Assembly: GCA_964521295.1 (NCBI GenBank)
Contig: CAZFRF010000001.1
Coordinates: 206,146-270,145, forward strand
Direction of reading: 5' to 3'
From: an uncultured Gammaproteobacteria bacterium
Lineage (GTDB): Bacteria > Patescibacteriota > Microgenomatia > Levybacterales > UBA12049
Length of the DNA: 64,000 nucleotides
Of this stretch, positions 7,243-33,784 are shown one piece after another. Numbering within the stretch: the first letter of the stretch is position 1; each line of letters begins with the position of its first letter. The translations under genes were made by a program, and so were the position numbers. The notes under the pieces are model-generated. The model saw only the letters and a program-made list of their open reading frames with translations. It searched no databases and was not told where the DNA came from.

Positions 7243-8607
7243 ATGATTTTCTTAAAAAGAAGAAGATTAATTTTCTGGTTAATAAAAGCCTATATCAAAA
7301 GGTGGAGAAAAACTATTTTAATTTCCTTTGTTTTTGGGCTGATTGCTTTCTTCCTTCTTCGCTACGGAGTAAACTATTTCGTTCCCCTACTTCCTTTTGT
7401 TCATGAAGAAAAAATTGGAATTGAAGGCGCTTATACAATTGATACATTACCTTCGACAATTATTTCTAAAGTTTCTGTTGGTTTAACTAAATTTGACGCA
7501 AATTATAAACCAATTCCAGGTGTTGCTAAGAAATGGGAAATAAAAGATAACGGTAAGACATACATTTTTTATCTCAAAGATAATATTAATTTCAGCGACA
7601 AGACAAAACTTACTTCAGACTTAATAAAATACAATTTTATAGGTGTAAATACACAAACACCTAATGACTCAACAATTGTTTTTAGACTCAAAAATAGCTA
7701 CGCGCCATTTTTGGTTACCGTAACTAGACCAATTTTTAAATCAGGGTTTGTAGGAATTGGAGATTATAAAGTTCAATCGGTTAAGTTAAATGGAGATTTT
7801 GTACAATCAATTACTTTAAGATCTCTAAAACAACAAAAAACTGTTTTAATTTATCAATTTTATCCCACTCAAGAAGCTTTAAAGACAGCTTTTGTTTTAG
7901 GGGAAATTGATAAGGCAATCAATTTAACAGATGTTAAGTTTAAAGATACTTCTTTTGAAAAGTTTCAAGGAGTAAATGTTTCCAGAAGGCTTGATGATCA
8001 AAACTTAGTAACTCTTTTTTACAATACAATTGATAAAAATTTATCAGATAAAAGACTTAGAGAGGCAATTGCCTATGCTATTCCCGATAAGTTTATGCAA
8101 GGATACAGAAATCATGGTCCTTTTTCTCCAAAATCATGGGTAAATAGTCCAAATTTAGCAACGTATACTCAGGATTTTGAACACGCAAAGCTTTTACTGG
8201 ATAATTCCGATTCATTTAAAGCAAATAAAAATGGGATTGCGTTTGAATTAAAAACTTTTCCTAAGTATGAGAGCTTAGCTAAAATTATTCAAAATAATTT
8301 AAAGAAATTAAATATACATATCAAAATTACCGTTGTTGATTCTCTGCCTACACAGTTTCAAATGTTTTTAGGCGATTTTAGGGTTCCTAGAGATCCAGAT
8401 CAATACATACTTTGGCATTCTTCCCAGGAAGACAATATTACAAAATATAAGAATTTAAGGATTGATAAGCTTTTAGAAGACGGAAGAGAAGTTAATTCAA
8501 TAGAAGAAAGAAAGAAGTTGTATACAGATTTTCAGAAGTACTTACTTGATGATCCTCCCGCAACTTTTCTTTTATTCCCCTATCTCTTTGATGTTAGTAG
8601 AAAGTAG
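7243..8607 (+). CDS. ABC transporter substrate-binding protein, family 5 (oligopeptide/nickel type), apparently short at the C-terminus
   Basis: N-terminal TM anchor. SBP_bac_5-like blocks GLTKFDANYKPIPGVAKKWEIKDNGKTYIFYLKDNINFSD and downstream conserved segments. At 454 aa it is shorter than typical family-5 SBPs. Its 3' end overlaps uvrC tail-to-tail. Confidence 0.65.
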   Translation: MIFLKRRRLIFWLIKAYIKRWRKTILISFVFGLIAFFLLRYGVNYFVPLLPFVHEEKIGIEGAYTIDTLPSTIISKVSVGLTKFDANYKPIPGVAKKWEIKDNGKTYIFYLKDNINFSDKTKLTSDLIKYNFIGVNTQTPNDSTIVFRLKNSYAPFLVTVTRPIFKSGFVGIGDYKVQSVKLNGDFVQSITLRSLKQQKTVLIYQFYPTQEALKTAFVLGEIDKAINLTDVKFKDTSFEKFQGVNVSRRLDDQNLVTLFYNTIDKNLSDKRLREAIAYAIPDKFMQGYRNHGPFSPKSWVNSPNLATYTQDFEHAKLLLDNSDSFKANKNGIAFELKTFPKYESLAKIIQNNLKKLNIHIKITVVDSLPTQFQMFLGDFRVPRDPDQYILWHSSQEDNITKYKNLRIDKLLEDGREVNSIEERKKLYTDFQKYLLDDPPATFLLFPYLFDVSRK

Positions 8608-9862
8608 CTTTTGATCTAAGTTTTTTGTGATAAGTAATTGCGAATCTATGCGCCTCATCCCTTATTTTCATAATCATAAGTAGTGCTTTAGAATCTTTTG
8701 GTAGCTTTATTTCTTGTAAGTCACTTGTAATAATTGTCTCTTCTCTCTTAGCTAAGCCAATAACCGGAATATTAACTTGTAATTTATCGAGTATTTCTTT
8801 TGCGCTTGAGACTTGGCCTTTGCCACCATCGATTAAGAATAAATCAGGTAATTGCCAAGAATTATGAAGTCTTCGTTCAATAACTTCTTTAATCATTCCA
8901 AAATCATTAGGTAGATTATTAAAATCGCTTTTTATTTTGAATCGTCTATATTGAGATTTATCTATATTGCCGTTTGTCAGGACAACCATAGAGGCTGTTG
9001 GATTAGTTCCTTGAGTATTTGAAATGTCATAACATTCAATTCTGTCTAGTTTTTTTACCCCTACTCCATTGGTATTTAATATTTCAATTAAAGAATTTAG
9101 TTGGGAAAAAATTACATCATCTTTTAAGTTAGGATTTTCCTCATATTCAAATGGTTTATAAAAAGGACTAGTGATTAGTTTAATTGCGTCAATTTTAACT
9201 TGAAATTTTCTTGCTTCTTCAAAATCTTCATTTTTACTTAATCTTTCTCTTTCTTTTTCTAAATCTTTAATAACATTTTTTGATTTACCATTCATAAAAT
9301 CAATAATGTGTTTTATGGTTTTTGTGTAATTGATATCATTTGTTACTTCAGGACAAGGACAAAGCCCTAAATGATTATATAAGCAAATTCTATTTCCATG
9401 ATTTATAACTGATTTATAGGGAAAGATTTTACGAAGTAATTTTAAAACAGTTCTTAAAGACGTCGCACTGGTAAATGGGCCAAAATACAATGCCTTAGAA
9501 TCGTCCATTTTTCTAACTACTAAAACTGCTGGATATTTATCTTTATAATTTATTTTTAAATAGGGAAAAGATTTATCATCTTTTAGAAGAATGTTGTATT
9601 TGGGTTTATGTTTCTTAATTAATCTTTCTTCAAGTAAAAATGCTTCAATTTCTGAAGTTACACTGATAGTTTTTATTTGCTTAATCTGCTCTACGAGGGC
9701 TTTGGTTTTTTCGCCTAAATCTTTATTTAGAAAGTAACTAGAGACTCTCTTCTTGAGGTTTTTTGCTTTCCCACAATAAATTATTCTCCCTTCTTCGTTT
9801 AAAAAAAGGTAGATGCCTGTATCCTGCGATAATGATCGATAGTCCGAAGATTGTACTAACAA
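8594..9862 (-). CDS. uvrC: Excinuclease ABC subunit C (UvrC), short form lacking the C-terminal (HhH)2 domain
   Basis: GIY-YIG motif GIYLFLNEEGRIIYCGKAKNLKKRVSSYF, Cys-rich segment, and the RNase-H-like endonuclease block ending DEAHRFAITYHKKLRSK. The protein stops about 8 aa after the block, where other UvrCs carry about 100 aa of HhH. The TTG start at 9862 overlaps the upstream gene by 125 nt, so the start is uncertain. Confidence 0.8.
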   Translation of the reverse strand: MLVQSSDYRSLSQDTGIYLFLNEEGRIIYCGKAKNLKKRVSSYFLNKDLGEKTKALVEQIKQIKTISVTSEIEAFLLEERLIKKHKPKYNILLKDDKSFPYLKINYKDKYPAVLVVRKMDDSKALYFGPFTSATSLRTVLKLLRKIFPYKSVINHGNRICLYNHLGLCPCPEVTNDINYTKTIKHIIDFMNGKSKNVIKDLEKERERLSKNEDFEEARKFQVKIDAIKLITSPFYKPFEYEENPNLKDDVIFSQLNSLIEILNTNGVGVKKLDRIECYDISNTQGTNPTASMVVLTNGNIDKSQYRRFKIKSDFNNLPNDFGMIKEVIERRLHNSWQLPDLFLIDGGKGQVSSAKEILDKLQVNIPVIGLAKREETIITSDLQEIKLPKDSKALLMIMKIRDEAHRFAITYHKKLRSKATFY

Positions 9863-11621
9863 CTATAGTTCCTCCTATTAAAAATTGAATATTTAAGAAA
9901 AATGGAACAATCTGAATATTCTTATATATACTTTGATTGTTAACTGCAATTCTAATTGTATCTGATAATTTTGTCAAAAAATCTGTCTTGTTAAATTCAA
10001 TTGGTATTTCAATTGATCCATAAGGTGGGAGTTTTGTAATCTGAATTGCTTGATTGTTTGGAGTTAGATTATCAGCAAATACGGTTAATTCATTTGCAGT
10101 AAATGCTCTGCCACTTGTATTTTGAATTGTAACATTTCCCTTAATAGGTAATCCTGCTGTTTGAATGGTATTTAGATTAATTGTAGTTTTAACTTCTACA
10201 TTTTTAGGAGTAAATTCAGGGGTAATTTCAACATTTACATCTTTTGAATTTAAATCTTTTTCAAACTTATAGCCTCCTGCGGGTACAGGGTAATTACTTT
10301 TTGTCCCATTAATTGCAAATGTAAAATGATCAAAATCAAGTGTGTTAAAGTAATCAACGCCATTCGTTGTATTTCCCCAAGTAGGATCAATCATTACCCA
10401 GGTGTTTTTAGTTGAGTCATAATATTGAGGCCAGGCGTGTAGAATGTCTTTAACAAGAGACAATGGTCTTTGTCCAGAATTATCTGTGTAGGCATAGCCA
10501 CTAACTGCTCTAGCTGGAATACCCGCTGCTCTAGCAAGAGTTACAAATAGATCTGTAAATTCTAAGCAAACAGCTGAATTTGGATTTTCTAGTGTTTTAA
10601 TTGCACCAAGTCGTGGGCTATTTGATTCGATTCTTGAGAAATCATATTTCAAAGTATCAACAATATAGTTATAGATTGCTTCAGGAGTTTTTAAATTTTT
10701 AGCTAATTCTTTAATTTTTGGGTCATTAGTTTGCCAAAAATCTGCGCTTTTTAAATATTCAGCTTTTTGAGCTGGATCAAGAGCTTCAGTTTTGGGATGT
10801 AAATAGATTTTAGCTTGTCCTAATACTTTAATATTTACTTTTTTCGAAGGAGCAAGGGTATATTGAGCAAGCCAATTGCCATCTTTATCGCTGTATACAT
10901 TGTCGGGTTTAGGATAAATCTGATCAATAGAAATTTCTTGGTAGTTGGTATCTGGTGGCAGGGCGATTTCGGTTTTAACTTTAAACAAATTTGTATTTTG
11001 TAGATGATAGGTTAAATTAAAGCTATAAACTTGAAAATCTCCGAAAGCTAAAGAAATACCTGAATCTCCTAGCTCGTCTTTACTAAAGTTGATTTCGTTT
11101 TCGGTTGCATTTTCAAGCGCATTCGTTATTTGAGGTTTAATAAAAGTTGGCTTACCAAGTTTGGCTGGATATTTAACTTTGACATTGAAATGGGAAAAAT
11201 CATTGTCACTTGATATTCCTGGAATATTAACGTCCCAGACGTTGTGCAAATCAGATGCAATTTCTCTAGTTATAAAGCTAACATTAAAAGTTAGTTTCTT
11301 ATTTAATCCAACTACTCTACTGTTAAAGGGAATTGTTAATAAGCTACCCGTGTCTGTTTGTTTAACAGTAGCATTTATTTTTCCATCATTGTCCGTTGCT
11401 GTCAAATTACGAATGTCTTTAAATCCAACCTGAAGACTATATGAAGAGGCATAATAATTTTCGGTGGTATTGGTTAGGCTGACATTTAAATTAACTGTTG
11501 TGTCTGAAGAATTGCCAATATTATAAGTAACATTATAATCAGTTGAAAATTTATCAGCTGCAAATGATTTAGGGGTTAGGAAAACAAATAATAAGAAAAT
11601 AATTAAGAGTATTTTCTTCAT
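9738..11621 (-). CDS. Secreted/surface transglutaminase-like domain protein with C-terminal TM anchor
   Basis: Signal peptide MKKILLIIFLLFVFLTPKSFA. Transglutaminase-like Cys-protease core CLEFTDLFVTLARAAGIPARAVSGYAY with downstream His and Asp blocks. C-terminal TM helix plus basic tail. Confidence 0.7.
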   Translation of the reverse strand: MKKILLIIFLLFVFLTPKSFAADKFSTDYNVTYNIGNSSDTTVNLNVSLTNTTENYYASSYSLQVGFKDIRNLTATDNDGKINATVKQTDTGSLLTIPFNSRVVGLNKKLTFNVSFITREIASDLHNVWDVNIPGISSDNDFSHFNVKVKYPAKLGKPTFIKPQITNALENATENEINFSKDELGDSGISLAFGDFQVYSFNLTYHLQNTNLFKVKTEIALPPDTNYQEISIDQIYPKPDNVYSDKDGNWLAQYTLAPSKKVNIKVLGQAKIYLHPKTEALDPAQKAEYLKSADFWQTNDPKIKELAKNLKTPEAIYNYIVDTLKYDFSRIESNSPRLGAIKTLENPNSAVCLEFTDLFVTLARAAGIPARAVSGYAYTDNSGQRPLSLVKDILHAWPQYYDSTKNTWVMIDPTWGNTTNGVDYFNTLDFDHFTFAINGTKSNYPVPAGGYKFEKDLNSKDVNVEITPEFTPKNVEVKTTINLNTIQTAGLPIKGNVTIQNTSGRAFTANELTVFADNLTPNNQAIQITKLPPYGSIEIPIEFNKTDFLTKLSDTIRIAVNNQSIYKNIQIVPFFLNIQFLIGGTIVVSTIFGLSIIIAGYRHLPFFKRRRENNLLWESKKPQEESL

Positions 11622-22051: not shown

Positions 22052-23383
22052 TTAAGACAATTTGAATTTAAATTTATTAAATAAATTATATTTTAAATTG
22101 ATAAACATTTTTAAATAAAAAACTAAAAATATAATAATCGTTGCTGCGCTCACGAAATAAGAAAAATTAACGCTTAATACAAGGTCTTCAAATTGTTGAA
22201 AAAGAAATAGTTCGTATTCTGAAATTACATAAAGGTTAATAAAGTGTAAAAAGCTTAAGAAAAGATACAAGGCCCAATATTTGTTCTTTAACGCTACCCA
22301 GGTAATCATTAATGGAAAAATTGGATACAAATATCTTTCGTGCATTTTAGGCAAAAATAAGAATCCTGCAAAAAGTACCATAAAAGATATAAAAAATAGC
22401 ATTTCAGTATTTGGTTTTTTTGACTTAATAATTTTTATTATTTGTAAAATCATAGGTATACAAATAACAGCAAACAAACCGTATGCCCACCAGAGAATAT
22501 TGATATTTAAGAAAGATTTAATAAATAACTGCGTAGTTGCTAGTCTTAAGGGGTTAAGTAGTAGCCACCAAAAATTATATGCATTTACCGTGATCGTTTG
22601 TTCTATGCCATTGGCTATATAGATAAAAGAATTAAATGCTGAGAAAGGATTTTGCCAGAAAGGAAAAGAAAGAGTCGTAAATAAAATTATATTTAAGACA
22701 AAAGGTTTAATAAATAACTTAGGTTTAATAAAGTTACCAAAAATCATAAAAAGAAGATAAAATGGCATAACAGGAAAAAGAGAAAATTTAGTAAATATTG
22801 ATAAGAATAAGAAGAATACAGTTAAAAAGCTGCGTTTTTTAATAAGAAAAACAATTGATAAGTAGAAAAATAAATTATTAATAGAATCCATTTGTCCCCA
22901 AACTGAACTGTTATAAATAATTGGAGGACCTAATAAATATAGAGCGCTTGCAAGTAAGGATTTTTTCTCGCCAATATAGCCTCGTAAAAATAAATATATA
23001 AATAGTCCTAAAATTAAATCAGCAATAATTGAAGGAAATCTTATAAAAAATACTAGTAAAATATCATTAATCCAATGTGCTTTTCCAGGATCTAAATGTA
23101 GAAAATGAACTAATGTCTTGGCGGTTAACAAAAAGACTTCATATGTTCCCCTTAATACATAAATAGTTCCTGGGGGTTGATCAACATCCCTCATTCCACC
23201 CGGAGATTTTACTGTATAAACCTTATCTATCCCGTAGGAATAACTTTTGTATACCCACTCTTTATAGATGTAAAAATCTACGTGTGGATATCGATGCATT
23301 ACTTGCGTGAAGAAAAAAAGTCTTAGTATAAAAGAAAAAAATATAAGCAGGATTATAAATTTGAAGCTCAACAATTTACTCAC
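22052..23383 (-). CDS. Polytopic membrane protein, putative GT-C-type glycosyltransferase (PMT/ArnT-like)
   Basis: About 12 TM helices with a first extracytoplasmic loop containing an acidic DVDQPPG motif, as in GT39/GT83-type enzymes. Weak assignment. Confidence 0.45.
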   Translation of the reverse strand: MSKLLSFKFIILLIFFSFILRLFFFTQVMHRYPHVDFYIYKEWVYKSYSYGIDKVYTVKSPGGMRDVDQPPGTIYVLRGTYEVFLLTAKTLVHFLHLDPGKAHWINDILLVFFIRFPSIIADLILGLFIYLFLRGYIGEKKSLLASALYLLGPPIIYNSSVWGQMDSINNLFFYLSIVFLIKKRSFLTVFFLFLSIFTKFSLFPVMPFYLLFMIFGNFIKPKLFIKPFVLNIILFTTLSFPFWQNPFSAFNSFIYIANGIEQTITVNAYNFWWLLLNPLRLATTQLFIKSFLNINILWWAYGLFAVICIPMILQIIKIIKSKKPNTEMLFFISFMVLFAGFLFLPKMHERYLYPIFPLMITWVALKNKYWALYLFLSFLHFINLYVISEYELFLFQQFEDLVLSVNFSYFVSAATIIIFLVFYLKMFINLKYNLFNKFKFKLS

Positions 23384-23444
23384 TAAATGTATTATTAAAG
23401 TAAATTAACTGAAATTACAAGAAATAAAAAGAGGAAATCTATAG

Positions 23445-23516
23445 TGAGCCGACCGAGATTCGAACTCGGGACCAAGAGCTTAAAAGGCTCCTGCTCTACC
23501 GCTGAGCTATCGGCCC
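23445..23516 (-). tRNA. tRNA-Lys (anticodon TTT)
   Basis: Reverse complement GGGCCGA-TA-GCTCAGCGGTAGAGC-A-GGAGC-CTTTTAA-GCTCT-TGGTC-CCGAGTTCGAATCTCGG-TCGGCTC-A. Anticodon loop CT-TTT-AA. Coordinates +/-2 nt. Confidence 0.85.
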
Positions 23517-24304: not shown

Positions 24305-25852
24305 TTATGTTATGCCGCCATCGTCTAGTGGCCTAGGACACCTGGTTTTCAGCCAGGGAATCAGGGGTTCGACTCCCCTTGGCGGTACTAAAGTTGTTTT
24401 TTCTACGTTGGCATTAGCGATTAGCTTGAAAGGAAGGCCTAACTCCTCGGTTCCAATATCATCATCTTTATAATAAATACCTTTTGGAAACAAAAGCTGT
24501 TGGAATCTTAACTTTTGATCAAAGGGTGCATCTAGCCATATTGTAGATACCTTCTTAAATAACTCTTCAGAAAGACTCATTAAATAGTCTATGTCTGCGT
24601 CAATGTTCTTAATTTCGTCTCTTTCCACTTCGTTGGTGACAATATTAGCTTTGACGATTTCCATTTGTTCTTTAAAATCATCATCTGAGATTATTCCTTT
24701 TAAATTCTTTTCAAGCAACATTTGCCTTCGAATGTTAAGATTATGTAGGCCTTTATCTATTCTTGCTTTATCTACAAGTACTGACTGTTGTTTCATTTTC
24801 CAAACATCTGTCAATATTTCCTTAAAAAGTTTAATAAATGCTTCATTAGGTTGTATTTGCTTTAATAAATAAATAAAAGATTCTTCTAGGCGTTCTTTTC
24901 TTACTCGTGTTTCTCCGCAAATGCAATGGTAATAAGCGTATTTGTTTGATCGTCCCGTAGACTTGCTTCCTGTTAAATTCTTACCACATGAAAGACACTT
25001 TGCAATTCCTCTTAATGGAAACTCAGGATTGTTAACTATCCTTGGAACTGCTGACACCGATCTTCCCTCACGTACCATCTGAGCCCTCTGAAATAAGTTA
25101 GGTGAGATTATTTTCTCATGTAAGCCTTCTTGCTCATCCCAGTCTTTTACCTTGATTATGCCCATATAAAGCTTGTTCTCTAAAATTTTGGTAACTGTTT
25201 GAGGAGACAATTTATTGTCTTTCTTGGTTCTTACGCCCCATTTATTAAATCTGTCAGTAATTTGTTTTATTGAATAGTTGCCCGAAGCATAAAGCTCAAA
25301 AGCTTGACGAACAAATGTAGCATTTTTTTCATCTATCACCATTCCAGTTGGAGTATTTCTATATCCTAATGGAGGAGCCCATGCCCATAGACCTTGTCTT
25401 ACGCGTTCCTTAAGACCTTCCCGCGTTCTGTCTGCTCGAACATCATTATCGAATTGAGCAACTGCAGCAAACATATTTTCTAAGAATTTTCCAGTCGAAC
25501 TTTCATCAATATTTTCATTCACTGATCTTAGAACAACACCGCATCTTGATAATGCAGCTCTAATGTAATGATGATCGTCCGCTTGCCTTGCAAACCTATC
25601 TATTTTGTGGACTAACACAGCATCTACTTTACCTTTGTTCTTTATGCAATATTCAAGCATTTTGCCAAGCTGAGTTCTATCAGCTGATCTAGCTGATTCT
25701 CCTTGTTCTTCAAATATTTGAAGAACATTCCAGCCCTGCTTTTCAGCATACTCGCTACATAGTTTTCTTTGAGAATCGAGACTATAACCCTGAAGCTGTT
25801 CTTTAGAGCTTACTCGGGTATAGACAACAACATTCATAATACTCTTACTCAT
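24305..25852 (-). CDS. Large serine recombinase (resolvase/invertase-type integrase)
   Basis: N-terminal resolvase domain VVVYTRVSSKEQ...GYSLDSQR with conserved Arg/Asp residues, recombinase domain, zinc ribbon CLSCGKNLTGS...YYHCICG and a coiled-coil tail. The last 28 or so codons are the antisense of tRNA-Glu, so the attachment site is embedded at the gene's 3' end. Confidence 0.85.
   Translation of the reverse strand: MSKSIMNVVVYTRVSSKEQLQGYSLDSQRKLCSEYAEKQGWNVLQIFEEQGESARSADRTQLGKMLEYCIKNKGKVDAVLVHKIDRFARQADDHHYIRAALSRCGVVLRSVNENIDESSTGKFLENMFAAVAQFDNDVRADRTREGLKERVRQGLWAWAPPLGYRNTPTGMVIDEKNATFVRQAFELYASGNYSIKQITDRFNKWGVRTKKDNKLSPQTVTKILENKLYMGIIKVKDWDEQEGLHEKIISPNLFQRAQMVREGRSVSAVPRIVNNPEFPLRGIAKCLSCGKNLTGSKSTGRSNKYAYYHCICGETRVRKERLEESFIYLLKQIQPNEAFIKLFKEILTDVWKMKQQSVLVDKARIDKGLHNLNIRRQMLLEKNLKGIISDDDFKEQMEIVKANIVTNEVERDEIKNIDADIDYLMSLSEELFKKVSTIWLDAPFDQKLRFQQLLFPKGIYYKDDDIGTEELGLPFKLIANANVEKTTLVPPRGVEPLIPWLKTRCPRPLDDGGIT
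24314..24387 (+). tRNA. tRNA-Glu (anticodon TTC); integration target
   Basis: GCCGCCA-TC-GTCTAGTGGCCTAGGAC-A-CCTGG-TTTTCAG-CCAGG-GAATC-AGGGGTTCGACTCCCCT-TGGCGGT-A. Anticodon loop TT-TTC-AG. Coordinates +/-2 nt. Confidence 0.85.
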
Positions 25853-26121: not shown

Positions 26122-26331
26122 TTAGATCAGATCTCTTGCTTTAGCTCCTAAAGCTTTTGCAATTTTGTTGAGAGAGTCTATACTTGGTCTACGCTGGCCC
26201 GTCTCTAATAAGCCAATGAAGGTTGTACTTAACCTTACTTTATCAGCTAATTCCTCTTGTGTTAATCCTACTTGCTTTCTCATTCTTTTTAAACGATTAG
26301 CAAAAGCTTTGTCCTTATTGGTTATTGCCAT
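26122..26331 (-). CDS. XRE-family (Cro/CI-type) HTH regulator
   Basis: 69 aa. LKRMRKQVGLTQEELADKVRLSTTFIGLLETGQRRPSIDSLNKIAKAL matches the HTH_XRE core. Divergent from two small cargo genes. Confidence 0.8.
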   Translation of the reverse strand: MAITNKDKAFANRLKRMRKQVGLTQEELADKVRLSTTFIGLLETGQRRPSIDSLNKIAKALGAKARDLI

Positions 26332-27325: not shown

Positions 27326-27360
27326 GCTATGTAATACATTACATGTATTTAATTACACAG
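27326..27360. repeat. Third, more divergent copy of the TGTAAT/ATTACA palindromic motif (ctatGTAATACATTACATGtatttaattacacag)
   Basis: TGTAAT-AC-ATTACA at 27330-27343, followed by an inverted gtgtaatt half-site. Confidence 0.45.
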
Positions 27361-27475: not shown

Positions 27476-27520
27476 GGGACTCCCAAGCGTTTTTAATGTG
27501 TAATCATTACATGTTTTGAT
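27476..27520. repeat. Imperfect direct repeat copy A (gggactcccaagcg...ttaatGTGTAATCATTACATGtttt) containing the palindrome TGTAAT-C-ATTACA
   Basis: Compared by eye with copy B at 30913-30960. Both share gactcc, tttta and GTGTAATC[A/G]TTACAT in the same order. The palindrome lies at 27499-27511. Confidence 0.6.
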
Positions 27521-27571: not shown

Positions 27572-28765
27572 CTAATTGAGTGGTGCGTCAGGCTTACTTA
27601 TGTTCTTAATTAATTCTACAAGCTTTGCTGCTTTATTATCAAAATATTCTTTATAGAATTGGCTTGAATTCATTTGAATAATTTCAATCTTCTCTGGACT
27701 TATTTGCTTAACGTTATAGATTTTGCTACTTATATCTGACTCTTGTATTCTTTTTATTTTATCAGCAATTTTCTTTGATATTTCTTTAGGATTTTTTTCA
27801 CCCTTAAATGGAGAAACAATTATTAGTTTTTTTTCAGGATATTTATTTACAGATTCAATAATTAAATTATTGATATATGTGTCAAAAAAGCTATATCCGA
27901 TTATAATAAAGAAATCTCTTTCATCAAGAATTTCTTTGAATCGAAAGGTCAAGCTAAGAAAAGGGTCGACAGATAACATTTTCGCCTCTTGTCCAAATAT
28001 TAGAAGTGGAATAAATGAGGTGAGGGGTAATTTATCTTCTTTTCTAACTTGTCCCTTCATTATTTCATCGTCAACACCTGCTATAGATTTTGTCCAGTTT
28101 AAAGAACCGTGTATTTTGTAGTAATTCATCCTATATTTTTCAACCTGATCTTGGCTATCAAACGCATTTTGCCAATCTCCTGATTGAAAACCATCGTTCA
28201 ATACAGTTTCAGCTGATGTGTTAAAGAATTTTTCAAAAACAAGATCATAGTTTATTGTAAAAAAATCCAGAACAAATGGTTTATCGCTAGTATCAGTAAG
28301 AAATTGTTTAACTGGAGTAAGTAACGTCTGTGATTTGGGAGCATCAAAAGATAACCAATTTGGTAGATATGTATATTCAATCTTAGAAAGCAAAGTCTTA
28401 AAAACATCTTGTTCCCTATACTCAAATTTTAATATCTTTTCACTCCAATTGCCTACCATCGGATGAGGAATTATATAGTCACGATTGACAATTTTTCTTA
28501 AAAGAAATACAAATTCTTCGATATTTGGAATATAATCCGTTTGCTTTGAAGCAATATTTTTCCAACTTTTTTGGTATTCAAGACAAGAAATAATAAATCT
28601 AAAAATTTCAACTTCATCCTTATTTCCTTCATGCTCTATTATTCGACCAAGGTCATCAATCATCATTTTTGAAGTTTTACAACCAGCCTCAACCGTAGCG
28701 CCCGCTCCTGTAAAAAAAACTACCTTTTTTGATAATTCTTCAAGTGTCATGCTTAAATAAACCAA
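27572..28765 (-). CDS. Sir2-family (DHS-like NAD-binding) effector protein, pAgo-associated
   Basis: N-terminal VVFFTGAGATVEAG (cf. Sir2 GAGIS-x-SGIP NAD-binding loop). TINYDLVFE (cf. TQNIDxL). YYKIHGSLNW (cf. the catalytic-His motif LHGSxxW of Sir2 NADase domains in ThsA/DSR/SPARSA). The start overlaps the pAgo stop by 13 nt. About 150 aa of C-terminal extension of unknown fold. Confidence 0.7.
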   Translation of the reverse strand: MVYLSMTLEELSKKVVFFTGAGATVEAGCKTSKMMIDDLGRIIEHEGNKDEVEIFRFIISCLEYQKSWKNIASKQTDYIPNIEEFVFLLRKIVNRDYIIPHPMVGNWSEKILKFEYREQDVFKTLLSKIEYTYLPNWLSFDAPKSQTLLTPVKQFLTDTSDKPFVLDFFTINYDLVFEKFFNTSAETVLNDGFQSGDWQNAFDSQDQVEKYRMNYYKIHGSLNWTKSIAGVDDEIMKGQVRKEDKLPLTSFIPLLIFGQEAKMLSVDPFLSLTFRFKEILDERDFFIIIGYSFFDTYINNLIIESVNKYPEKKLIIVSPFKGEKNPKEISKKIADKIKRIQESDISSKIYNVKQISPEKIEIIQMNSSQFYKEYFDNKAAKLVELIKNISKPDAPLN

Positions 28766-30807
28766 AGTGTCTTTTTGGCAATCTTCGAGTTTGGTAATCC
28801 ATTTGAGAAGTAATAAGCCTTTTCGGACAACTCTTTGGCATATTCAATTGTGACTGGGACAGCTTTCTGTTTAATGGATCTCCAATACAACCTTGAAAAT
28901 TCATATACTTGGTCTAATAGGTCTATAACTTCATTTTTGTCCCTAATGTCTACGCCGTTATGAGCAGTTATAGTGATTTTTACTGGGTATTTATCATCAC
29001 CTTTATAAGTTGAGATATCGTCACTGTGTCTTTCATTATTGAATAAAATAAATACACTTTTTTTAAGTTCGACAACGGTTCCGCTAACTGGGATTTTACC
29101 AGGATAACTTTTATCAAAGCATATGTAATCTTTTGCTCTAGTATCATTTATATTAAGGACAGTATATGGAATATTTAAGTTGAGATTTTTAAATACTTCC
29201 GCTAAAGTTGCTGACTCTTTGTTTCCCCACTCTTTAAAATAATGAATTATTAATTTTTGAGGCTCTCCGTTTTCTACTATGTGATTATTAATGGCGTCTT
29301 CAAGGCTTTTTTTTAAATTTTCTTGTGTATACTCAAAGCAACTTAAATCCTTAAAAACTCCACTATTATTAAAACATACAGTATTCCCAATGTACCTAGT
29401 TCCACCAGGAGATTTAATAATTTTTTCTCCAAAACCAACCAACAAACAGTTACCTAAGTCTCTCTTTAATTTCCAAGGTATTCCTCCAACTTTAGCTAAA
29501 ATTGCAATCGCCATATTAGGAAGATAAAAATGTATAGCTTGTGATTTAAGCTTTATAGATTCAATAACCTGAGAAGTAATGTTTAAATTTAAAAGCGATT
29601 CTTTTATTTTAAAATAAATTAATTTTTCATCCTCATTTGCTGTTTCTTCGCTAAAAGGGGATATATACAATGCAACATACTTTCTTTGCGAATCAAGTGT
29701 TAAACTTTTTAAGCGTTCTTCTATCTGTTCTAGGGCAGTGTTTGAGCTTTCGAAACTAATAGAATTCTCTATATCCAAGTCGAATGGGATTTTTGAAAAA
29801 CTTTCCAATCCAGGAAAATGTCTATAACCATATTTGAAATATTTATATAGACTATTAGCTATATCTTTATCCGTTTTTGAATAAATAAATATAAACTTAA
29901 CTTTATCTACATCTTCGGGTACAAAATACGGTCCGTAATTTGAGAAACCACGATATGGGTCATACTCAGTTTTTCCTTCCCCGAATTCTAGCAAATTTTT
30001 TTCTCTAGGAATTTCGATTATTTCGCTTTCTTTAAGCTCTCTTAGTCCAGATGCTAGAACCTGAACTCCCCGTGCTATATCTTTTCCTTTTAAGTGTGAT
30101 TCATAAAAAGTTGTTATTAAGCTGTAATGATTTATAAAAGAAAAGTCTTTTGACGATGCAAATGATAATCTAAGATTAGAATCAATTTCTCTATTGAGTA
30201 ATGGCTTGCCGGTTTTGATTATCTCCTCGTCTAAAAATTTTGTTCTGAAAATCTCCTTGTCTAGTAAAACTTTCTTAACAGTTTGATGTTCTAAATTTAG
30301 TTCTGAGATAGATTGTTTATGTATTTTGGAATTTTGACTTCCTAATCCAATCGTTAAGTAGTATTTGTCAAACTGTTTATCAATTTTTAAATTCCATACG
30401 TTATACTCATAATAATCGTCTGTTGTTGCTGGCTGCTTTTTTTCCCAAATCTCCAGATCATCAATGAAATTGGATGCTGTAATAAATTCTTTATGCTGGA
30501 AATAGGATTTAAATTTTGAGGAGAGATACAATGGAATAAAAAATGGTTCTTTTTCAAGATTAAATGTAAATTGCTTCAATTCATTGTCTGCCTCCTCTTT
30601 TTCAAATTTTATACTTACGTGACTATTCTGATGAGCAATCGAGTTTAAATAAGATGCAAAATCGGTACTAGTGTTATTTAGGTTTCGTAGGAGATAATCT
30701 ATGGTAAAAACACGTGAGAATTTGTAGTCTTTTCCCGGCTTAAAGAATATATCTATCGAATCTTTTGGATACGTTATTAATACTTGATTAATTAGTAATT
30801 GCGACAT
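28753..30807 (-). CDS. Prokaryotic Argonaute (pAgo) with catalytically inactive PIWI domain
   Basis: C-terminal PIWI block AIAILAKVGGIPWKLKRDLGNCLLVGFGEK contains the hallmark KxGGxPW/NW motif. The position of the first catalytic Asp (GxDVxH) is occupied by GFGEK, and no RDG motif follows (LIIHYFKEWG). The MID-like region is YVALYISPFSEE...KLIYFKIKES. The roughly 370-aa N-terminal region fits either N/L1/PAZ*-L2 or a fused APAZ. Confidence 0.72.
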   Translation of the reverse strand: MSQLLINQVLITYPKDSIDIFFKPGKDYKFSRVFTIDYLLRNLNNTSTDFASYLNSIAHQNSHVSIKFEKEEADNELKQFTFNLEKEPFFIPLYLSSKFKSYFQHKEFITASNFIDDLEIWEKKQPATTDDYYEYNVWNLKIDKQFDKYYLTIGLGSQNSKIHKQSISELNLEHQTVKKVLLDKEIFRTKFLDEEIIKTGKPLLNREIDSNLRLSFASSKDFSFINHYSLITTFYESHLKGKDIARGVQVLASGLRELKESEIIEIPREKNLLEFGEGKTEYDPYRGFSNYGPYFVPEDVDKVKFIFIYSKTDKDIANSLYKYFKYGYRHFPGLESFSKIPFDLDIENSISFESSNTALEQIEERLKSLTLDSQRKYVALYISPFSEETANEDEKLIYFKIKESLLNLNITSQVIESIKLKSQAIHFYLPNMAIAILAKVGGIPWKLKRDLGNCLLVGFGEKIIKSPGGTRYIGNTVCFNNSGVFKDLSCFEYTQENLKKSLEDAINNHIVENGEPQKLIIHYFKEWGNKESATLAEVFKNLNLNIPYTVLNINDTRAKDYICFDKSYPGKIPVSGTVVELKKSVFILFNNERHSDDISTYKGDDKYPVKITITAHNGVDIRDKNEVIDLLDQVYEFSRLYWRSIKQKAVPVTIEYAKELSEKAYYFSNGLPNSKIAKKTLWFI

Positions 30808-30912: not shown

Positions 30913-30960
30913 AGACTCCTTGGGGTCTTTTAGCTCATGGTGTGTAATCGTTACATATTT
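30913..30960. repeat. Imperfect direct repeat copy B (gagactccttggggtcttttagctcatgGTGTAATCGTTACATattt) containing the palindrome TGTAA-TCG-TTACA
   Basis: See copy A. Copies A and B bracket the pAgo-Sir2 operon (27572-30807). The gactccttgggg segment resembles the tRNA-Glu 3' end gactccccttggcgg. Confidence 0.6.
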
Positions 30961-31119: not shown

Positions 31120-32451
31120 CTAAATAACTTCTAATCCTTTGCTTTCGTTATGAACATGTTTAACCATTTTTTCTTGATAGACACGCACTCCTTCTTTTTG
31201 TGGCACGCTATATGAACCATATAAAATATTTCCTTTATATATGCTTGTAATACCTTGATAGATTAAGCTAAGTAATCTATTTTCACCAGTAATTTTATAA
31301 TTCGCTCTAACTATATCTGGAAGTTCTTCTAAAACTCTTCCAAGATTAAGTCCTTCAACTGCTCTTTTAACTCCTAACCAAAATGCATCAGCTAAGAATT
31401 CAAAATCAACTCTTGGTCCATCATAAGTCATAGTATCTGCCATTGCTCTTATTGTTGAATCAATGTTTCCCACTTGAGTAGCGATGTGGTGTGGATAGTC
31501 AAACCATGTGTATGGATGATCAAGATACATGCTTTTTCCGACAGCCTCTAAATCAAGTTCTTCACCCATAGTGGAGACATTACGTGCTAAATTTTGCCAA
31601 GCAGGTCCACCAGAACACATTTGAAAACCTTCAGTAATTAAGGGAAGCTCTTGACCAACTACTTTTTGCGAAACAAATCTTAAATAAGAACTTAAATCTG
31701 GCTTAGAGACTCCTTCGGCTTTTGCAAATTGATCAAGAACAAATTCTCTGTAGGGTGGAATTACTAAACGCTGTCTTCTTTCGTACATAGTTACTGAATC
31801 TAGTAATCTAAAGTTACTTTTTGATGCTCTAACTAGAATTACTGGTTTTCCTCTAAAGAACCCGCTTGATCTTAAAACACTTGGAGGAAGATAATCGCCA
31901 TTTAGATCAGGTAGTTGGGTAATTTCATAAATTCCTAAGATTTTTTCAGTATCCAATCCTCTTTCTGTAAAATGATCAACTCCAACTGATTCTTGCATAG
32001 CATCTCTTGCTTCTAGCTCTCCATAGCCATCGTAAAATGGGTATCTTGCCATTGGTTCTCGCATATCCATATAGCCTCTATATGCGACCGAACCATTTCT
32101 AGCAATTGTTGTAGCGCCAACCCCTTTAAAATTAACGACATATTCCTTGCCATCAATTTCTACAGTTTCATCAGCTTCTAATACTCTTCCGCATTCATAT
32201 GGACTTGACATGATTTTAGTTAAAGCCTGTAAGTCAGTAGAAAAACCAGCATACATATCCGGAGTAACAACGACTCTAAGTCCGCCTTCAACTACTGCTC
32301 TAATCTGAGGGTTGTTGGTGACTAGCGGAGACTCATATAGTGCGCTAGTCATAGCCGGCAATGTATATTCAATATTCGCATGGATTCTGTTATTGCCGTA
32401 AACAGCTAGCACTCTTGGATTAGTTGATATTCTTTCTTTACTTCTATTCAT
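31120..32451 (-). CDS. Uncharacterised 443-aa protein, paralog 1 of a tandem pair
   Basis: Long ORF. About 45-50% identical by eye to the adjacent 443-aa ORF, with shared blocks NIEYTLPA, SSP(Y/F)ECGRVLEAD, V(N)xKGVGAT, LVRASKS(N/H)FRLLDSVTMYER, PLIT(E/Q)G, W(Q/K)NLARNVS and GEELDLEAV. Higher GC than surroundings. No family recognised. Confidence 0.6.
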   Translation of the reverse strand: MNRSKERISTNPRVLAVYGNNRIHANIEYTLPAMTSALYESPLVTNNPQIRAVVEGGLRVVVTPDMYAGFSTDLQALTKIMSSPYECGRVLEADETVEIDGKEYVVNFKGVGATTIARNGSVAYRGYMDMREPMARYPFYDGYGELEARDAMQESVGVDHFTERGLDTEKILGIYEITQLPDLNGDYLPPSVLRSSGFFRGKPVILVRASKSNFRLLDSVTMYERRQRLVIPPYREFVLDQFAKAEGVSKPDLSSYLRFVSQKVVGQELPLITEGFQMCSGGPAWQNLARNVSTMGEELDLEAVGKSMYLDHPYTWFDYPHHIATQVGNIDSTIRAMADTMTYDGPRVDFEFLADAFWLGVKRAVEGLNLGRVLEELPDIVRANYKITGENRLLSLIYQGITSIYKGNILYGSYSVPQKEGVRVYQEKMVKHVHNESKGLEVI

Positions 32452-32452
32452 G

Positions 32453-33784
32453 CTATTTAAATAAAGCCTTTTTCTCTTTGGCTATCTGATCAACCATTGT
32501 TTTTCTATATATCCAACCGCCTTCTGGTGGTGGAGTTCTATATGTATCTGTAAATACCATATGAATATATGCATACTCAATGGCATCAAAAATTCCTTTA
32601 AAAAGTGAATCAGGACCTGTAAAATTGAATTGTCTACGTACATTTTGGGTCATTGTTCGTAAAACAGCATGTAAATCCAAATTAGCAAGACTACCTCTAA
32701 GTCCTTCCCAAACCATGAGCGCTAAGCTATCAAAATCTACTTTAGGGCCACCATCAGTAATTGTGTCTGCAAAGCCCCTAAGCGCCTTATCTATATTCAT
32801 TACATGGTTTGTGACATGATCTTTATAATCGAAAGGAACAGATTGTGATAAATAATCTTTATGTGGCTCTACTGCTTCTAAATCAAGTTCTTCACCTAAA
32901 ACTGAAACATTTCTGGCCAAATTTTTCCATTTTGTCTTTCCTGCAGACATTTCATATCCTTGAGTAATTAATGGCACTTCTTGCCTGAACAATTTTTGAG
33001 TCAAATATCTCAAATATGTATCCATATCTCCAGGTTGTCCTTCAGCCTTATGAAATTGTTCTAAGATTAGCTCTCTTAAACCAGGAATATAAAATTGCAT
33101 TTGTCTTTCATACATAGTTACTGAATCAAGTAGCCTAAAATGACTCTTTGACGCTCTTACTAAAAGAGTAGGTTCTGTAGAAAGTCTATTTTCTTGTTTT
33201 AATACTGCTGGAGAAGTATATTCACCATCTACTCCTGGCATTCTCAGGATTCTATAGATTCCCAAAACTTTTTCTGTATCAATACCTTGCGCTCTTAAGT
33301 CAATTGCATTATCTCGTTCAGACTGTGCATAACGAGCATCTAGTTCGCCAAAACCATGATAAAAAGGATAGACTGCTAAACGATTAAGTACAGCAGTATT
33401 ATTTTCAAAAGCTATTTCACCGTTTCTAAAGACTGACGTTGCGCCAACCCCTTTAATATTTACTGTATACTCGACTCCGTCAATCATGACTGTTGGATCT
33501 GCCTCTAAAACTCTTCCGCATTCAAAAGGACTAGACATAACTGTAACGTCTGCCCTAGCTGCTGGAAGTAATCTAAAATATGTTTGAGGTAAGATTATTA
33601 CTCTTAAATTATCATGGACAACCCTTCTTACATTCGGATCATCAGTTACAGTAAAGGATTCATATTGAGTAACTGTGGTTGCGGGTAATGTATATTCAAT
33701 ATTTGGCACCGTTGATGGACCATATACTCTTGCGATACGGGGATTAGTTGTAATTAATGGTAAAAACTCTTTTGGTTGAGCCAT
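32453..33784 (-). CDS. Uncharacterised 443-aa protein, paralog 2 of a tandem pair
   Basis: See paralog 1. The stop of paralog 2 is 1 nt from the start of paralog 1. Confidence 0.6.
   Translation of the reverse strand: MAQPKEFLPLITTNPRIARVYGPSTVPNIEYTLPATTVTQYESFTVTDDPNVRRVVHDNLRVIILPQTYFRLLPAARADVTVMSSPFECGRVLEADPTVMIDGVEYTVNIKGVGATSVFRNGEIAFENNTAVLNRLAVYPFYHGFGELDARYAQSERDNAIDLRAQGIDTEKVLGIYRILRMPGVDGEYTSPAVLKQENRLSTEPTLLVRASKSHFRLLDSVTMYERQMQFYIPGLRELILEQFHKAEGQPGDMDTYLRYLTQKLFRQEVPLITQGYEMSAGKTKWKNLARNVSVLGEELDLEAVEPHKDYLSQSVPFDYKDHVTNHVMNIDKALRGFADTITDGGPKVDFDSLALMVWEGLRGSLANLDLHAVLRTMTQNVRRQFNFTGPDSLFKGIFDAIEYAYIHMVFTDTYRTPPPEGGWIYRKTMVDQIAKEKKALFK

Follow-up and report, generated by a model that had tools for sequence, protein, structure and literature searches.

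Introduction

BPAS systems are defined by a long-B Argonaute (pAgo) and a standalone SIR2_2 protein of orthogroup og_44, and the pAgos precede the genes associated with them (Song et al. 2023, PMC10620215). Single-chain long-B pAgos with a ThsA-like Sir2 gene immediately downstream have likewise been described (Manakova et al. 2024, PMC10954474). In GbBPAS, a CloDF13-origin plasmid triggers NAD+ depletion, the pAgo suppresses the toxicity of the Sir2 protein and the two proteins co-purify (PMC10620215). BPAS activity has so far been demonstrated against plasmids only. The SPARSA pAgo comprises MID-PIWI only, and APAZ, the equivalent of N-L1-L2, is fused to a SIR2_1-type Sir2 whose gene lies upstream. 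In BPAN (EcAgo/EcbAgaN) and in the RsAgo system, the effector is a PD-(D/E)XK nuclease that degrades DNA and forms no stable complex with the pAgo. AfAgo consists of two polypeptides, and the effector encoded downstream of it is a helical-domain fusion, Af1317.

Here we analyse a 64,000-nucleotide stretch of DNA (the window), which belongs to a 935,984-bp contig from the ~0.9-Mb genome of a member of Candidatus Levybacteria. Two ORFs on the minus strand, between positions 27572 and 30807, are both real, and the gene for a nuclease-dead pAgo followed by a predicted Sir2 NADase gene constitutes one two-gene operon with a predicted immune role. We take this operon to be an abortive-infection system of the BPAS type (long-B pAgo plus Sir2), a type that has already been described and tested, with a probability of roughly 0.8. 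What is new is a divergent BPAS subclade, its CPR host and its carriage beside a large serine integrase at tRNA-Glu.

The pAgo is a single-chain long-B protein with an intact MID pocket

The features of the pAgo are as follows.

28753..30807, minus strand: long-B type pAgo of the BPAS-type system, 684 aa, predicted to be catalytically inactive
29923..30807, minus strand: N-terminal lobe, about residues 1-295, with N, L1, PAZ remnant and L2 (approximate boundaries)
Within this lobe: PAZ remnant of about 50 aa, about residues 165-215, with a beta-hairpin at 179-188 (approximate boundaries)
29542..29922, minus strand: MID domain, about residues 296-422, YK-type 5'-phosphate pocket intact (Y398, K402, Q413)
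28756..29541, minus strand: PIWI* domain, about residues 423-684, without the DEDX tetrad, containing pocket residues N431 and K439

As anticipated by an earlier reading of the letters (the first-pass annotation), Pfam finds Piwi in the 684-aa protein and SIR2_2 in the second protein. The Piwi match (PF02171) spans pAgo residues 394-664 (E=3.6e-13), and the PADLOC full-length pAgo HMM matches the 684-aa protein with E=4e-160. The first-pass annotation had also pointed to KVGGIPWKL, located at residue 439, to GFGEK, located at residue 458, and to a missing RDG; indeed, neither RDG nor even DG occurs anywhere in the whole 684-aa protein. In an hhalign alignment of the family profile with the human AGO2 PIWI region, D597/E637/D669/H807 of AGO2 correspond to K462/T494/K525/K658, a mapping with a low hhalign probability because the AGO2 template is a single sequence, and one in which the glutamate-finger position falls in a loop and is uncertain. 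Position 525 is a lysine in 44 of the 45 family members. The DEDX tetrad is lost, with both catalytic aspartates missing and K/T/K/K at the tetrad positions, and the PIWI domain is thus predicted to be nuclease-dead, as had been proposed. An active long-A pAgo nuclease was considered and rejected: the tetrad mapping, the column counts and the missing RDG all speak against an intact DEDX tetrad. A GxG(A) motif is common to this pAgo and the inactive AfAgo, EcAgo and RsAgo.

The MID pocket has the canonical YK form. Its residues, Y398, K402, Q413, N431 and K439, are invariant in 45/45 pAgo family members, the YK motif being characteristic of long-B pAgos (PMC6299218), and MID-PIWI similarity places the protein in the long-B clade.

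The portion preceding MID had been put at about 370 aa; the secondary structure of the model shortens it to about 295 aa (approximate boundary). Two identities had been offered for it. The model shows N, L1, a PAZ remnant and L2 in a full-length single chain, in line with the long-B alternative rather than the fused APAZ. The closest solved relative by sequence is AfAgo (family profile E=9e-44), and the N-lobe matches AfAgo-N (N-L1-L2), although AfAgo is divided between two polypeptides and the pAgo here is one chain. A SPARSA-type short pAgo was rejected on the ~295-aa N-lobe of the 684-aa protein and on the score of the 8in8 short pAgo (2e-12, against 9e-44 for AfAgo). An architecture outside the described systems, in which a short-pAgo-like APAZ-MID-PIWI fusion would operate with a standalone Sir2, is already largely refuted and appears extremely unlikely.

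The second gene encodes a predicted standalone Sir2 NADase

27572..28750, minus strand: standalone SIR2_2-family effector, 392 aa, predicted bAgaS-type NADase; catalytic N167, D169 and H214, GAGAT NAD-binding loop

Pfam SIR2_2 (PF13289) matches this protein with E=3e-11. PADLOC Aga_SIR2 model PDLC02414 covers most of its length (1.1e-63), followed by PDLC02408 (Class II, 1.8e-49). BLASTP against GbbAgaS gives 27% identity over 335 residues (E=1e-22), and GbbAgaS scores 7e-55 against the Sir2 family HMM of the window protein. The motifs named earlier were located as GAGAT at 15, TINYD at 165 and YKIHGSLNW at 211, and the alignment of catalytic residues that the first-pass annotation called for shows that G15-A16-G17, N167, D169 and H214 are invariant in 34 Sir2 sequences. 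N167 occupies the column of GbbAgaS N155, whose mutation to alanine abolishes toxicity (PMC10620215), and the NAD-binding and catalytic residues, including the equivalents of GbbAgaS N155 and of ThsA N112/H152, are intact.

The AF2 model of the Sir2 protein has a pLDDT of 88.2. A sequence-only PDB search with this protein gave no match; it was the fold search that did, in which the SIR2 protein of the antiphage system SIR2-HerA (E=1e-12 to 1e-11) and that of SPARSA score best and human SIRT2 is more distant (~1e-6). The SIR2 fold includes deacylases and ADP-ribosyltransferases, and the distant SIRT2 match might be read as a sign that the protein works on the pAgo or some other target as a protein deacylase or ADP-ribosyltransferase, or by making a signalling nucleotide. 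However, the best fold matches are to antiphage NADases of SIR2-HerA and to the SPARSA Sir2, the PADLOC matches are all to defence-type SIR2 models and the homologous GbbAgaS depletes NAD+ in vivo (PMC10620215), which makes such an activity very unlikely and argues for an NADase.

Other Sir2 contexts were also considered. In Thoeris, ThsA joins a Sir2 to a SLOG (or transmembrane) domain and has the TIR-domain protein ThsB as its partner. A Thoeris ThsA was rejected, as no SLOG or TIR match was found in the Sir2 protein or in neighbouring genes; the highest-scoring PADLOC models are those for SIR2 proteins associated with Argonautes rather than for ThsA. A SPARSA Sir2-APAZ was rejected since the 392-aa Sir2 is without APAZ and its gene lies downstream. 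The PADLOC Aga_SIR2-PNTD1-PNTD2 model matches just 31 Sir2 residues (E=0.006).

The C-terminal "PF" tail of Sir2, which is found family-wide and in GbbAgaS, is replaced by PLN/PLS in the subclade of the window. If this tail mediates docking or regulation, pAgo-Sir2 coupling could differ here.

The two genes are tightly coupled

28748..28755, minus strand: gene junction TAA-GC-ATG, with pAgo stop, 2-nt spacer and Sir2 start, from the sequence, homolog alignment and an independent gene call

The first-pass annotation described a 13-nt overlap between the genes, which depends on a TTG start at 28765. In the homolog alignment, however, nearly all Sir2 homologs have their first Met in the column of the ATG at 28750, which is also where a gene call made independently on a public contig starts Sir2. 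Because both lines of evidence favour it, the Sir2 start is most likely this conserved ATG, 2 nt past the pAgo stop (TAAGCATG), giving the TAA-GC-ATG junction and a protein of 392 aa rather than the 397 aa first given. The genes are tightly coupled under either start; pAgo-Sir2 spacers in relatives measure 0-12 nt.

Relics are frequent in reduced CPR genomes, the Sir2 PF tail is altered and a promoter and terminator scan gave no signal above chance; on these grounds the operon could have been acquired horizontally and now be in decay, as a remnant without function. We regard decay as extremely improbable. Both ORFs are full length and keep all invariant family residues, an identical pAgo-Sir2 segment is present in an independent assembly from a public sequencing run, and the altered tail is a clade trait, not decay, because a 74%-identical homolog has it too.

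The locus matches the BPAS definition and diverges from GbBPAS

The standard defence annotator PADLOC would call this locus, and the published BPAS definition fits it feature by feature, down to a SIR2_2 protein that stands alone, belongs to the bAgaS/og_44 family and is encoded directly downstream of the pAgo on the same strand. The first-pass annotation had considered a separate, short, downstream Sir2 unusual and, should the pAgo carry an APAZ, unrecognised from described systems; it is the defining BPAS layout (Song et al. 2023), and a comparable gene order is described by Manakova et al. 2024. Its broader proposal, that an inactive pAgo is paired with a Sir2 effector of the NADase type, as in other effector-coupled pAgo systems that act by abortive infection, is supported by the domains predicted here and by the intact NADase residues.

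Like GbBPAS, the locus consists of two genes, a pAgo upstream and a standalone SIR2_2 downstream; in both, the PIWI is inactive and MID-PIWI is of the long-B type, the pairing of pAgo and Sir2 is clade-specific, and the Sir2 proteins are homologous along almost their entire length and share the catalytic Asn (N155 in GbbAgaS, N167 in the window). GbAgo residues 1-393 score 2e-36 against the pAgo family HMM of the window protein. In contrast, identity is just 25-27%, that of the pAgo to GbAgo (25%) extending over MID only, the N-lobe is about 50-60 aa longer here, and GbAgo up to residue ~145 does not significantly match the pAgo family of the window. The Sir2 protein measures 348 aa in GbBPAS and 392 aa in the window, with PLN in place of PF at the C-terminus. 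Separate PADLOC HMMs exist for each subfamily (PDLC02385/02414 versus PDLC02381/02408), and the GbBPAS host is a gammaproteobacterium whereas that of the window operon is a CPR bacterium.

Compared with SPARSA, the N-lobe is within the pAgo, the Sir2 is SIR2_2-type, separate and downstream, and the two pAgos belong to different clades. The predicted Sir2 NADase also distinguishes the locus from the nuclease effectors of BPAN and RsAgo and from Af1317.

The pairing is conserved and the operon lies in a strain-variable region

Among 80 related genome loci, Sir2 abuts or overlaps the pAgo gene in 13; L004 is a 14th, with Sir2 1.65 kb downstream. In a neighbour-joining tree the Sir2-linked pAgos are all on the same side, and the pair is also found in the three closest homologs looked up (L082, L087 and L088), a clade-specific co-occurrence of the kind expected from co-evolution.

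The CPR-like host proposed earlier is borne out: the UvrA encoded in the window shares 84% identity with proteins of Candidatus Levybacteria, and the named top UvrA matches are all from Levybacteria or Patescibacteria. Two features mark the flank of the operon.

24305..25852, minus strand: large serine integrase; Pfam Resolvase, Recombinase and Zn_ribbon_recom, phrog_95 integrase 2e-97
24314..24388, plus strand: tRNA-Glu (TTC), from ARAGORN and Rfam

The 3' end of the integrase gene runs antisense through tRNA-Glu, and the same geometry is found in L088 beside a 48%-identical pAgo-Sir2 pair. The island that bears the operon probably owes its mobility to this integrase and is probably integrated at tRNA-Glu. 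A related Levybacteria contig, L086 (UvrA 98% identical as protein, 84% nucleotide identity), is collinear with the window only to a tRNA-Lys at ~23449, ~0.9 kb from tRNA-Glu, past which it carries unrelated sequence without a tRNA. The operon thus lies in a strain-variable region of the Candidatus Levybacteria chromosome. Given this variability and the serine integrase at tRNA-Glu, the most likely origin of the operon is horizontal transfer on an integrative element. An empty site sought in sister strain L086 gave no clean attB, and the island does not stand out from the host in GC content. Neither a displaced partial tRNA-Glu copy nor long direct repeats marking the far end of the island were found, as expected for a serine integrase.

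Neighbouring genes were screened as parts of the system. The Xre HTH, a 63-aa ORF, two small membrane proteins and the 443-aa paralogs were placed outside it because they do not recur beside pAgo-Sir2 pairs elsewhere. Two of these 443-aa genes lie upstream of the pAgo; a further 443-aa ORF, at 22052-23383, was compared with them as a possible third paralog and is unrelated.

In L088 as in the window, the pair lies next to a large serine integrase abutting tRNA-Glu. This position and the strain-variability of the region raise the question of whether the pair mainly serves its mobile element, keeping the tRNA-Glu island stable through addiction or through competition between elements. By itself GbbAgaS is toxic, an effect that its pAgo neutralises in the manner of a toxin-antitoxin pair (PMC10620215). 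However, most related loci have no integrase beside the pair, and two close relatives carry it adjoining type I R-M or other R-M genes, a setting typical of defence islands. Moreover, the strictly conserved guide pocket argues for nucleic-acid sensing rather than a simple toxin-antitoxin pair. We consider a primarily element-serving role unlikely. A role in island addiction and host immunity are not mutually exclusive.

Proposed mechanism and significance

For a BPAS-type system, the following scheme, in which complex formation, the type of guide and target, invader-triggered NAD+ depletion and cell death are modelled on GbBPAS and related systems, may apply. The 684-aa pAgo would provide a full N-L1-(vestigial PAZ)-L2-MID-PIWI scaffold unable to cut nucleic acid, and its MID pocket would most likely load short 5'-phosphorylated guides, presumably RNA by analogy with RsAgo, AfAgo, EcAgo and short pAgos. 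The co-translated 392-aa Sir2 would most likely be bound to the pAgo and kept inactive. Recognition of complementary DNA of invading plasmids or phages by the guide-loaded pAgo would then release or activate the Sir2 NADase and deplete NAD+, and the infected cell would die or stop growing, removing the invader from the population. A similar course is known from SPARSA, where detection of invader DNA by a guide-loaded but inactive Ago switches on a Sir2 NADase and abortive infection follows.

CPR bacteria are thought to be defence-poor and dependent on hosts for metabolites, and an NAD+-depleting suicide system in Levybacteria is of ecological interest for this reason. Literature searches for pAgos in Patescibacteria returned false positives only. 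The subclade, with its longer N-lobe, altered Sir2 tail and tRNA-Glu serine-integrase elements, might differ mechanistically from GbBPAS in guide or target type, in Sir2 docking or release, or in having island retention or inter-element competition as its primary role; we view this as doubtful. If true, the locus would also be the first documented case of Argonaute-based NAD+-depletion immunity in a CPR episymbiont dependent on salvaged cofactors.

The locus adds little on how Argonaute-Sir2 systems work. BPAS has one characterised member, and no solved BPAS structure was found in the literature and the PDB copy searched; this divergent pair, at 25-27% identity to GbBPAS, could serve as a second experimental model. 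The window and L088 together point to tRNA-Glu large-serine-integrase elements as vehicles of this system between lineages.

A palindrome brackets the operon

30943..30955: one of the three copies of palindrome TGTAATCGTTACA, located 136 nt before the pAgo start
27330-27343 and 27499-27511: two further copies, downstream of the Sir2 stop

The pattern TGTAA-N3/4-TTACA has three matches in 64 kb, against 0.30 expected, and none of 100 shuffles reached three. No other locus examined has the palindrome beside a pAgo-Sir2 pair. The copies bracket the operon, and the palindrome is a possible operator. The single copies present in each of five non-Sir2 loci look like chance occurrences.

A two-gene operon encoding an Argonaute and a SIR2_2 protein

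The first-pass annotation recognised a pAgo-Sir2 system in the window, and this identification is genuine and correct. Both of the ORFs it claimed exist, on the minus strand, with the second ending at 27572:

28753-30807, minus strand, Argonaute (pAgo), 684 aa
27572-28750, minus strand, Sir2, 392 aa

As anticipated, the 684-aa protein harbors a Piwi domain (Pfam PF02171, E=3.6e-13, residues 394-664) and the second protein a SIR2_2 domain (PF13289, E=3e-11). The quoted motifs are also in place, with KVGGIPWKL at 439 and GFGEK at 458 of pAgo, in which RDG is absent, and GAGAT at 15, TINYD at 165 and YKIHGSLNW at 211 of the Sir2. The genes had further been described as overlapping by 13 nt. This overlap needs a TTG start at 28765 and did not hold, as the alignment shows that the methionine matching the ATG at 28750 is the start in nearly all Sir2 homologs, and on a public contig with an identical pAgo-Sir2 segment the Sir2 was independently called from this ATG, giving 392 aa. 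The junction is thus TAA-GC-ATG. The tight coupling proposed along with the overlap did stand; indeed, the pAgo-Sir2 spacers in relatives are 0-12 nt, and the coupling is therefore conserved.

The Argonaute contains a long-Argonaute N-lobe

The PADLOC model PDLC02385 ("pAgo") covers the window pAgo end to end (E=4.4e-160), while pAgo_II (PDLC02381, Class II) covers its C-terminal 415 residues (9e-52). A profile of the pAgo family, built from 45 sequences and run against all PDB sequences, matched AfAgo (9e-44), EcAgo of the BPAN system (9e-32) and RsAgo (1e-25), all members of the long-B clade, whereas the scores of active long-A Agos (3e-11 to 3e-9) and of a short pAgo (2e-12) were weaker. 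The long-Argonaute N-lobe sits in the same chain as the MID-PIWI. The N-terminal half had been read as either N/L1/PAZ*/L2 or a fused APAZ, the latter implying a new architecture. There is no real choice here, as the N-lobe is of the long-Argonaute type that the literature predicts, and a new APAZ-fusion architecture is unlikely. In EcAgo the "PAZ" is merely ~60 residues, hairpin-like and located between L1 and L2 (PMC13535254). At the position of the EcAgo "PAZ", the predicted pAgo model contains a comparable ~50-residue segment (about 165-215) that includes a hairpin at 179-188, and we infer from this model that the segment may be a PAZ remnant.

The catalytic tetrad is lost and the MID pocket is invariant

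To locate the catalytic positions, the 45-sequence family profile was aligned to the PIWI region of human AGO2, a comparison that serves as supporting evidence only. The anchors were sensible, with KLGGV matched to KVGGIPW and PAPAYYAHLVA to VPVTIEYAKELSE. In this alignment AGO2 residues D597/E637/D669/H807 correspond to K462/T494/K525/K658 of the window pAgo. Position 525 is lysine in 44 of the 45 family pAgos and position 658 is glutamate or lysine. Position 462 is variable; where it is aspartate, residue 525 is never acidic. Moreover, the Gly-x-Gly(-Ala) at 458-461 agrees with the equivalent stretch in the inactive AfAgo, EcAgo and RsAgo. Thus, the PIWI is nuclease-dead, as the first reading had deduced from its motifs. 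The aspartate in the first-catalytic-Asp column, found in 15/45 sequences with lysine in the second-Asp column in 44/45, may be a relic of an ancestral active site.

The MID pocket residues Y398, K402, Q413, N431 and K439 are invariant (45/45). They make up the canonical YK motif, reported for nearly all long-B pAgos (Ryazansky et al., PMC6299218). Therefore, judging from its sequence, the window pAgo should still bind a 5'-phosphorylated guide.

The Sir2 belongs to the Argonaute-associated SIR2_2 effectors

By far the best PADLOC matches of the window Sir2 are the Argonaute-associated models Aga_SIR2 (PDLC02414, 1.1e-63) and PDLC02408 (Class II, 1.8e-49); generic defence SIR2 models score no better than 1e-23. 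The model for the Sir2-APAZ of short-pAgo systems aligns with merely 31 residues (E=0.006). The catalytic residues that had been proposed for checking are present: in an alignment of 34 sequences, N167 and D169 (TxNYD) and H214 (KxHGS) never vary, and neither does the NAD-binding loop (G15-A16-G17).

The tested BPAS example, GbBPAS, consists of GbAgo and the Sir2 GbbAgaS. Using the GbbAgaS sequence that Song et al. 2023 provide as supplementary data, we found 27% identity to the window Sir2 over 335 residues (E=1e-22), in which N155 aligns with N167; alanine at N155 removes GbbAgaS toxicity (Song et al. 2023, PMC10620215). GbbAgaS matches the HMM of the window Sir2 family almost end to end (7e-55), and GbAgo, of which 393 residues were available, matches the pAgo family HMM from L2 through MID (2e-36). 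The predicted Sir2 model (pLDDT 88.2) has as its top fold match the antiphage SIR2 NADase of SIR2-HerA (E=1e-12 to 1e-11), followed by the SPARSA Sir2 (1e-6). A non-NADase chemistry for this Sir2 is unlikely, and so is the view that the operon is a decayed relic.

In the Sir2 family alignment, a conserved C-terminal "...PF" tail is found in nearly all Argonaute-associated Sir2s of this family, GbbAgaS included; PLN/PLS replaces PF in the window Sir2 (residues 386-392 region) and in its 74%-identical relative. The PF tail may serve in docking or regulation.

The operon has a BPAS-type architecture

Song et al. 2023 (PMC10620215) gave the name BPAS to operons of a long-B pAgo and a SIR2_2 (og_44) protein, and reported that in BPAN, BPAS and BPAM operons the pAgos lie "upstream of their associated genes". 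Manakova et al. 2024 (PMC10954474) independently noted that long-B pAgos can be directly followed by a gene for a ThsA-like Sir2. The separate downstream Sir2, which had been deemed unusual, is therefore the canonical BPAS arrangement, and the window operon is BPAS-type, a known architecture and not a new one. All of the sequence-level defining features of BPAS that could be tested are present, whereas the operon lacks the short pAgo, the upstream effector and the Sir2-APAZ fusion that define SPARSA.

The differences from GbBPAS are quantitative. The identity is 25-27%, the N-lobe of the window pAgo is ~50-60 residues longer than that of GbAgo, the first ~145 GbAgo residues show no significant match to the window pAgo family, and the window Sir2 has 392 aa compared to 348 aa in GbbAgaS. 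GbbAgaS and the family end in "PF", unlike the window subclade (PLN/PLS). This divergence from the sole characterised BPAS is one reason for continued interest in the operon.

The Sir2 of GbBPAS is toxic on its own; its pAgo suppresses this toxicity and co-purifies with it, and a plasmid with a CloDF13 origin sets off NAD+ depletion, dependent on the Sir2, and cell death (PMC10620215). The architecture and residue conservation of the window operon are direct observations, and by analogy the BPAS mechanism is the most likely one for it (probability about 0.8). The nuclease-dead pAgo, carrying a 5'-phosphorylated guide, would search for complementary invader DNA, while the Sir2 would be kept inactive in complex with the pAgo; target binding would then activate the Sir2 NADase, leading to NAD+ collapse and loss of the infected cell. 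For guide type, complex formation and activation, this proposal draws on GbBPAS, RsAgo, AfAgo and EcBPAN.

The pAgo-Sir2 pairing is clade-specific

To survey the pairing we used the best 80 related loci from species-representative genomes. The family Sir2 abuts or overlaps the pAgo stop in 13 of these, and in one locus, on an Anaerolineales chromosome, it is 1.65 kb off, with a Sir2-like fragment straight after the pAgo; in the other 66, heterogeneous genes lie downstream of pAgo. In a neighbour-joining pAgo tree, all 15 Sir2-linked pAgos, including that of the window, fall on one side and all 66 non-Sir2 pAgos on the other. A pAgo followed by a SIR2_2 gene is also present in each of the three closest homologs looked up, at 57%, 48% and 47% identity. 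This pattern is the same as the clade-specific co-evolution of pAgos with og_44 Sir2 in the BPAS of Song et al.

The Anaerolineales locus encodes a 174-aa Sir2-like fragment (7959-8480) right after the pAgo and what appears to be the remainder ~1.2 kb on (9657-10448), which suggests that the effector was disrupted by insertion. The large sister clade (66 loci, mostly Bacteroidota) contains long-B-like pAgos of ~680 aa, with no Sir2 and no conserved downstream gene in these loci; encoded downstream are, among others, regulators of the AraC-like and Fur-like types, helicases and ABC-type ATPases. In effect, these inactive pAgos are "orphans", any effector being non-adjacent. Two pAgos from archaeal MAGs, of the Nanoarchaeota (DPANN; L007) and the Heimdallarchaeaceae (P0033), share 34-35% identity with the window pAgo, and in the former a Sir2 immediately follows the pAgo. 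Assuming correct binning, this points to cross-domain pAgo transfer that also reached another ultra-small symbiont lineage.

The operon lies in a strain-variable region at tRNA genes

The host is a CPR bacterium. UvrA from the window shares 84% identity with Candidatus Levybacteria proteins, the named top matches are all Levybacteria or Patescibacteria, and the source contig spans 935,984 bp. The library searched yielded no literature on Argonautes in CPR hosts, a weak negative; such a host for a pAgo-Sir2 system remains of interest. The block containing the operon begins with:

24314-24388, tRNA-Glu
24305-25852, large serine integrase, antisense through tRNA-Glu (phrog_95, 2e-97)

After the integrase come a 63-aa ORF, an Xre-type HTH protein and two small membrane proteins, and then the Sir2 and pAgo. 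A related Levybacteria contig, L086, is collinear with the window at 84% nucleotide identity over 21.9 kb, ending at a tRNA-Lys at ~23449 (23444-23516), past which L086 (1-1049) diverges fully, with unrelated genes and no tRNA found. The region is therefore strain-variable, and the tRNA-Lys/tRNA-Glu interval appears to be a hotspot of such variation. In the window we found no displaced tRNA fragment and no long repeat to mark where the element ends on its far side. Serine integrases are expected to leave no such mark. GC content fails to separate island from host.

Exactly three copies of the palindrome TGTAA-N3/4-TTACA are present in the 64-kb window (27330-27343, 27499-27511 and 30943-30955), compared to 0.30 expected, a count reached in 0/100 shuffles. 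The copies bracket the operon, two lying past the Sir2 stop codon and the third 136 nt ahead of the pAgo start, and were found beside no pAgo-Sir2 pair in any other locus. They could be an operator for the island Xre HTH protein (26122-26331) or cassette ends. Directly upstream of pAgo are two tandem paralogous 443-aa ORFs:

31120-32451, minus strand, 443-aa ORF
32453-33784, minus strand, 443-aa ORF

Across the repeated segments found, their DNA is 72-78% identical. Pfam, NCBIfam, PADLOC and PHROGs gave no significant match for either ORF, and they are absent beside pAgo-Sir2 pairs elsewhere.

In a second, independent locus, L088, a pAgo-Sir2 pair with 48% identity is followed by a 516-aa serine recombinase (8224-9774) whose 3' end overlaps an antisense tRNA-Glu (9727-9801). 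The recombinases of the window and L088 share about 25% identity; both, at ~515 aa, enter the tRNA-Glu antisense from its 3' end. These data suggest that a family of tRNA-Glu-targeting serine-integrase elements carries pAgo-Sir2 as cargo, a recurrent association that merits interest. A role for the pair primarily in island retention would be compatible with the BPAS mechanism and is unlikely. In the locus of the closest homolog, L082, a type I R-M system immediately precedes the pair, and in L088 R-M genes are located upstream of the pair; R-M and integrase neighbours of this kind typify defence islands and mobile cargo.
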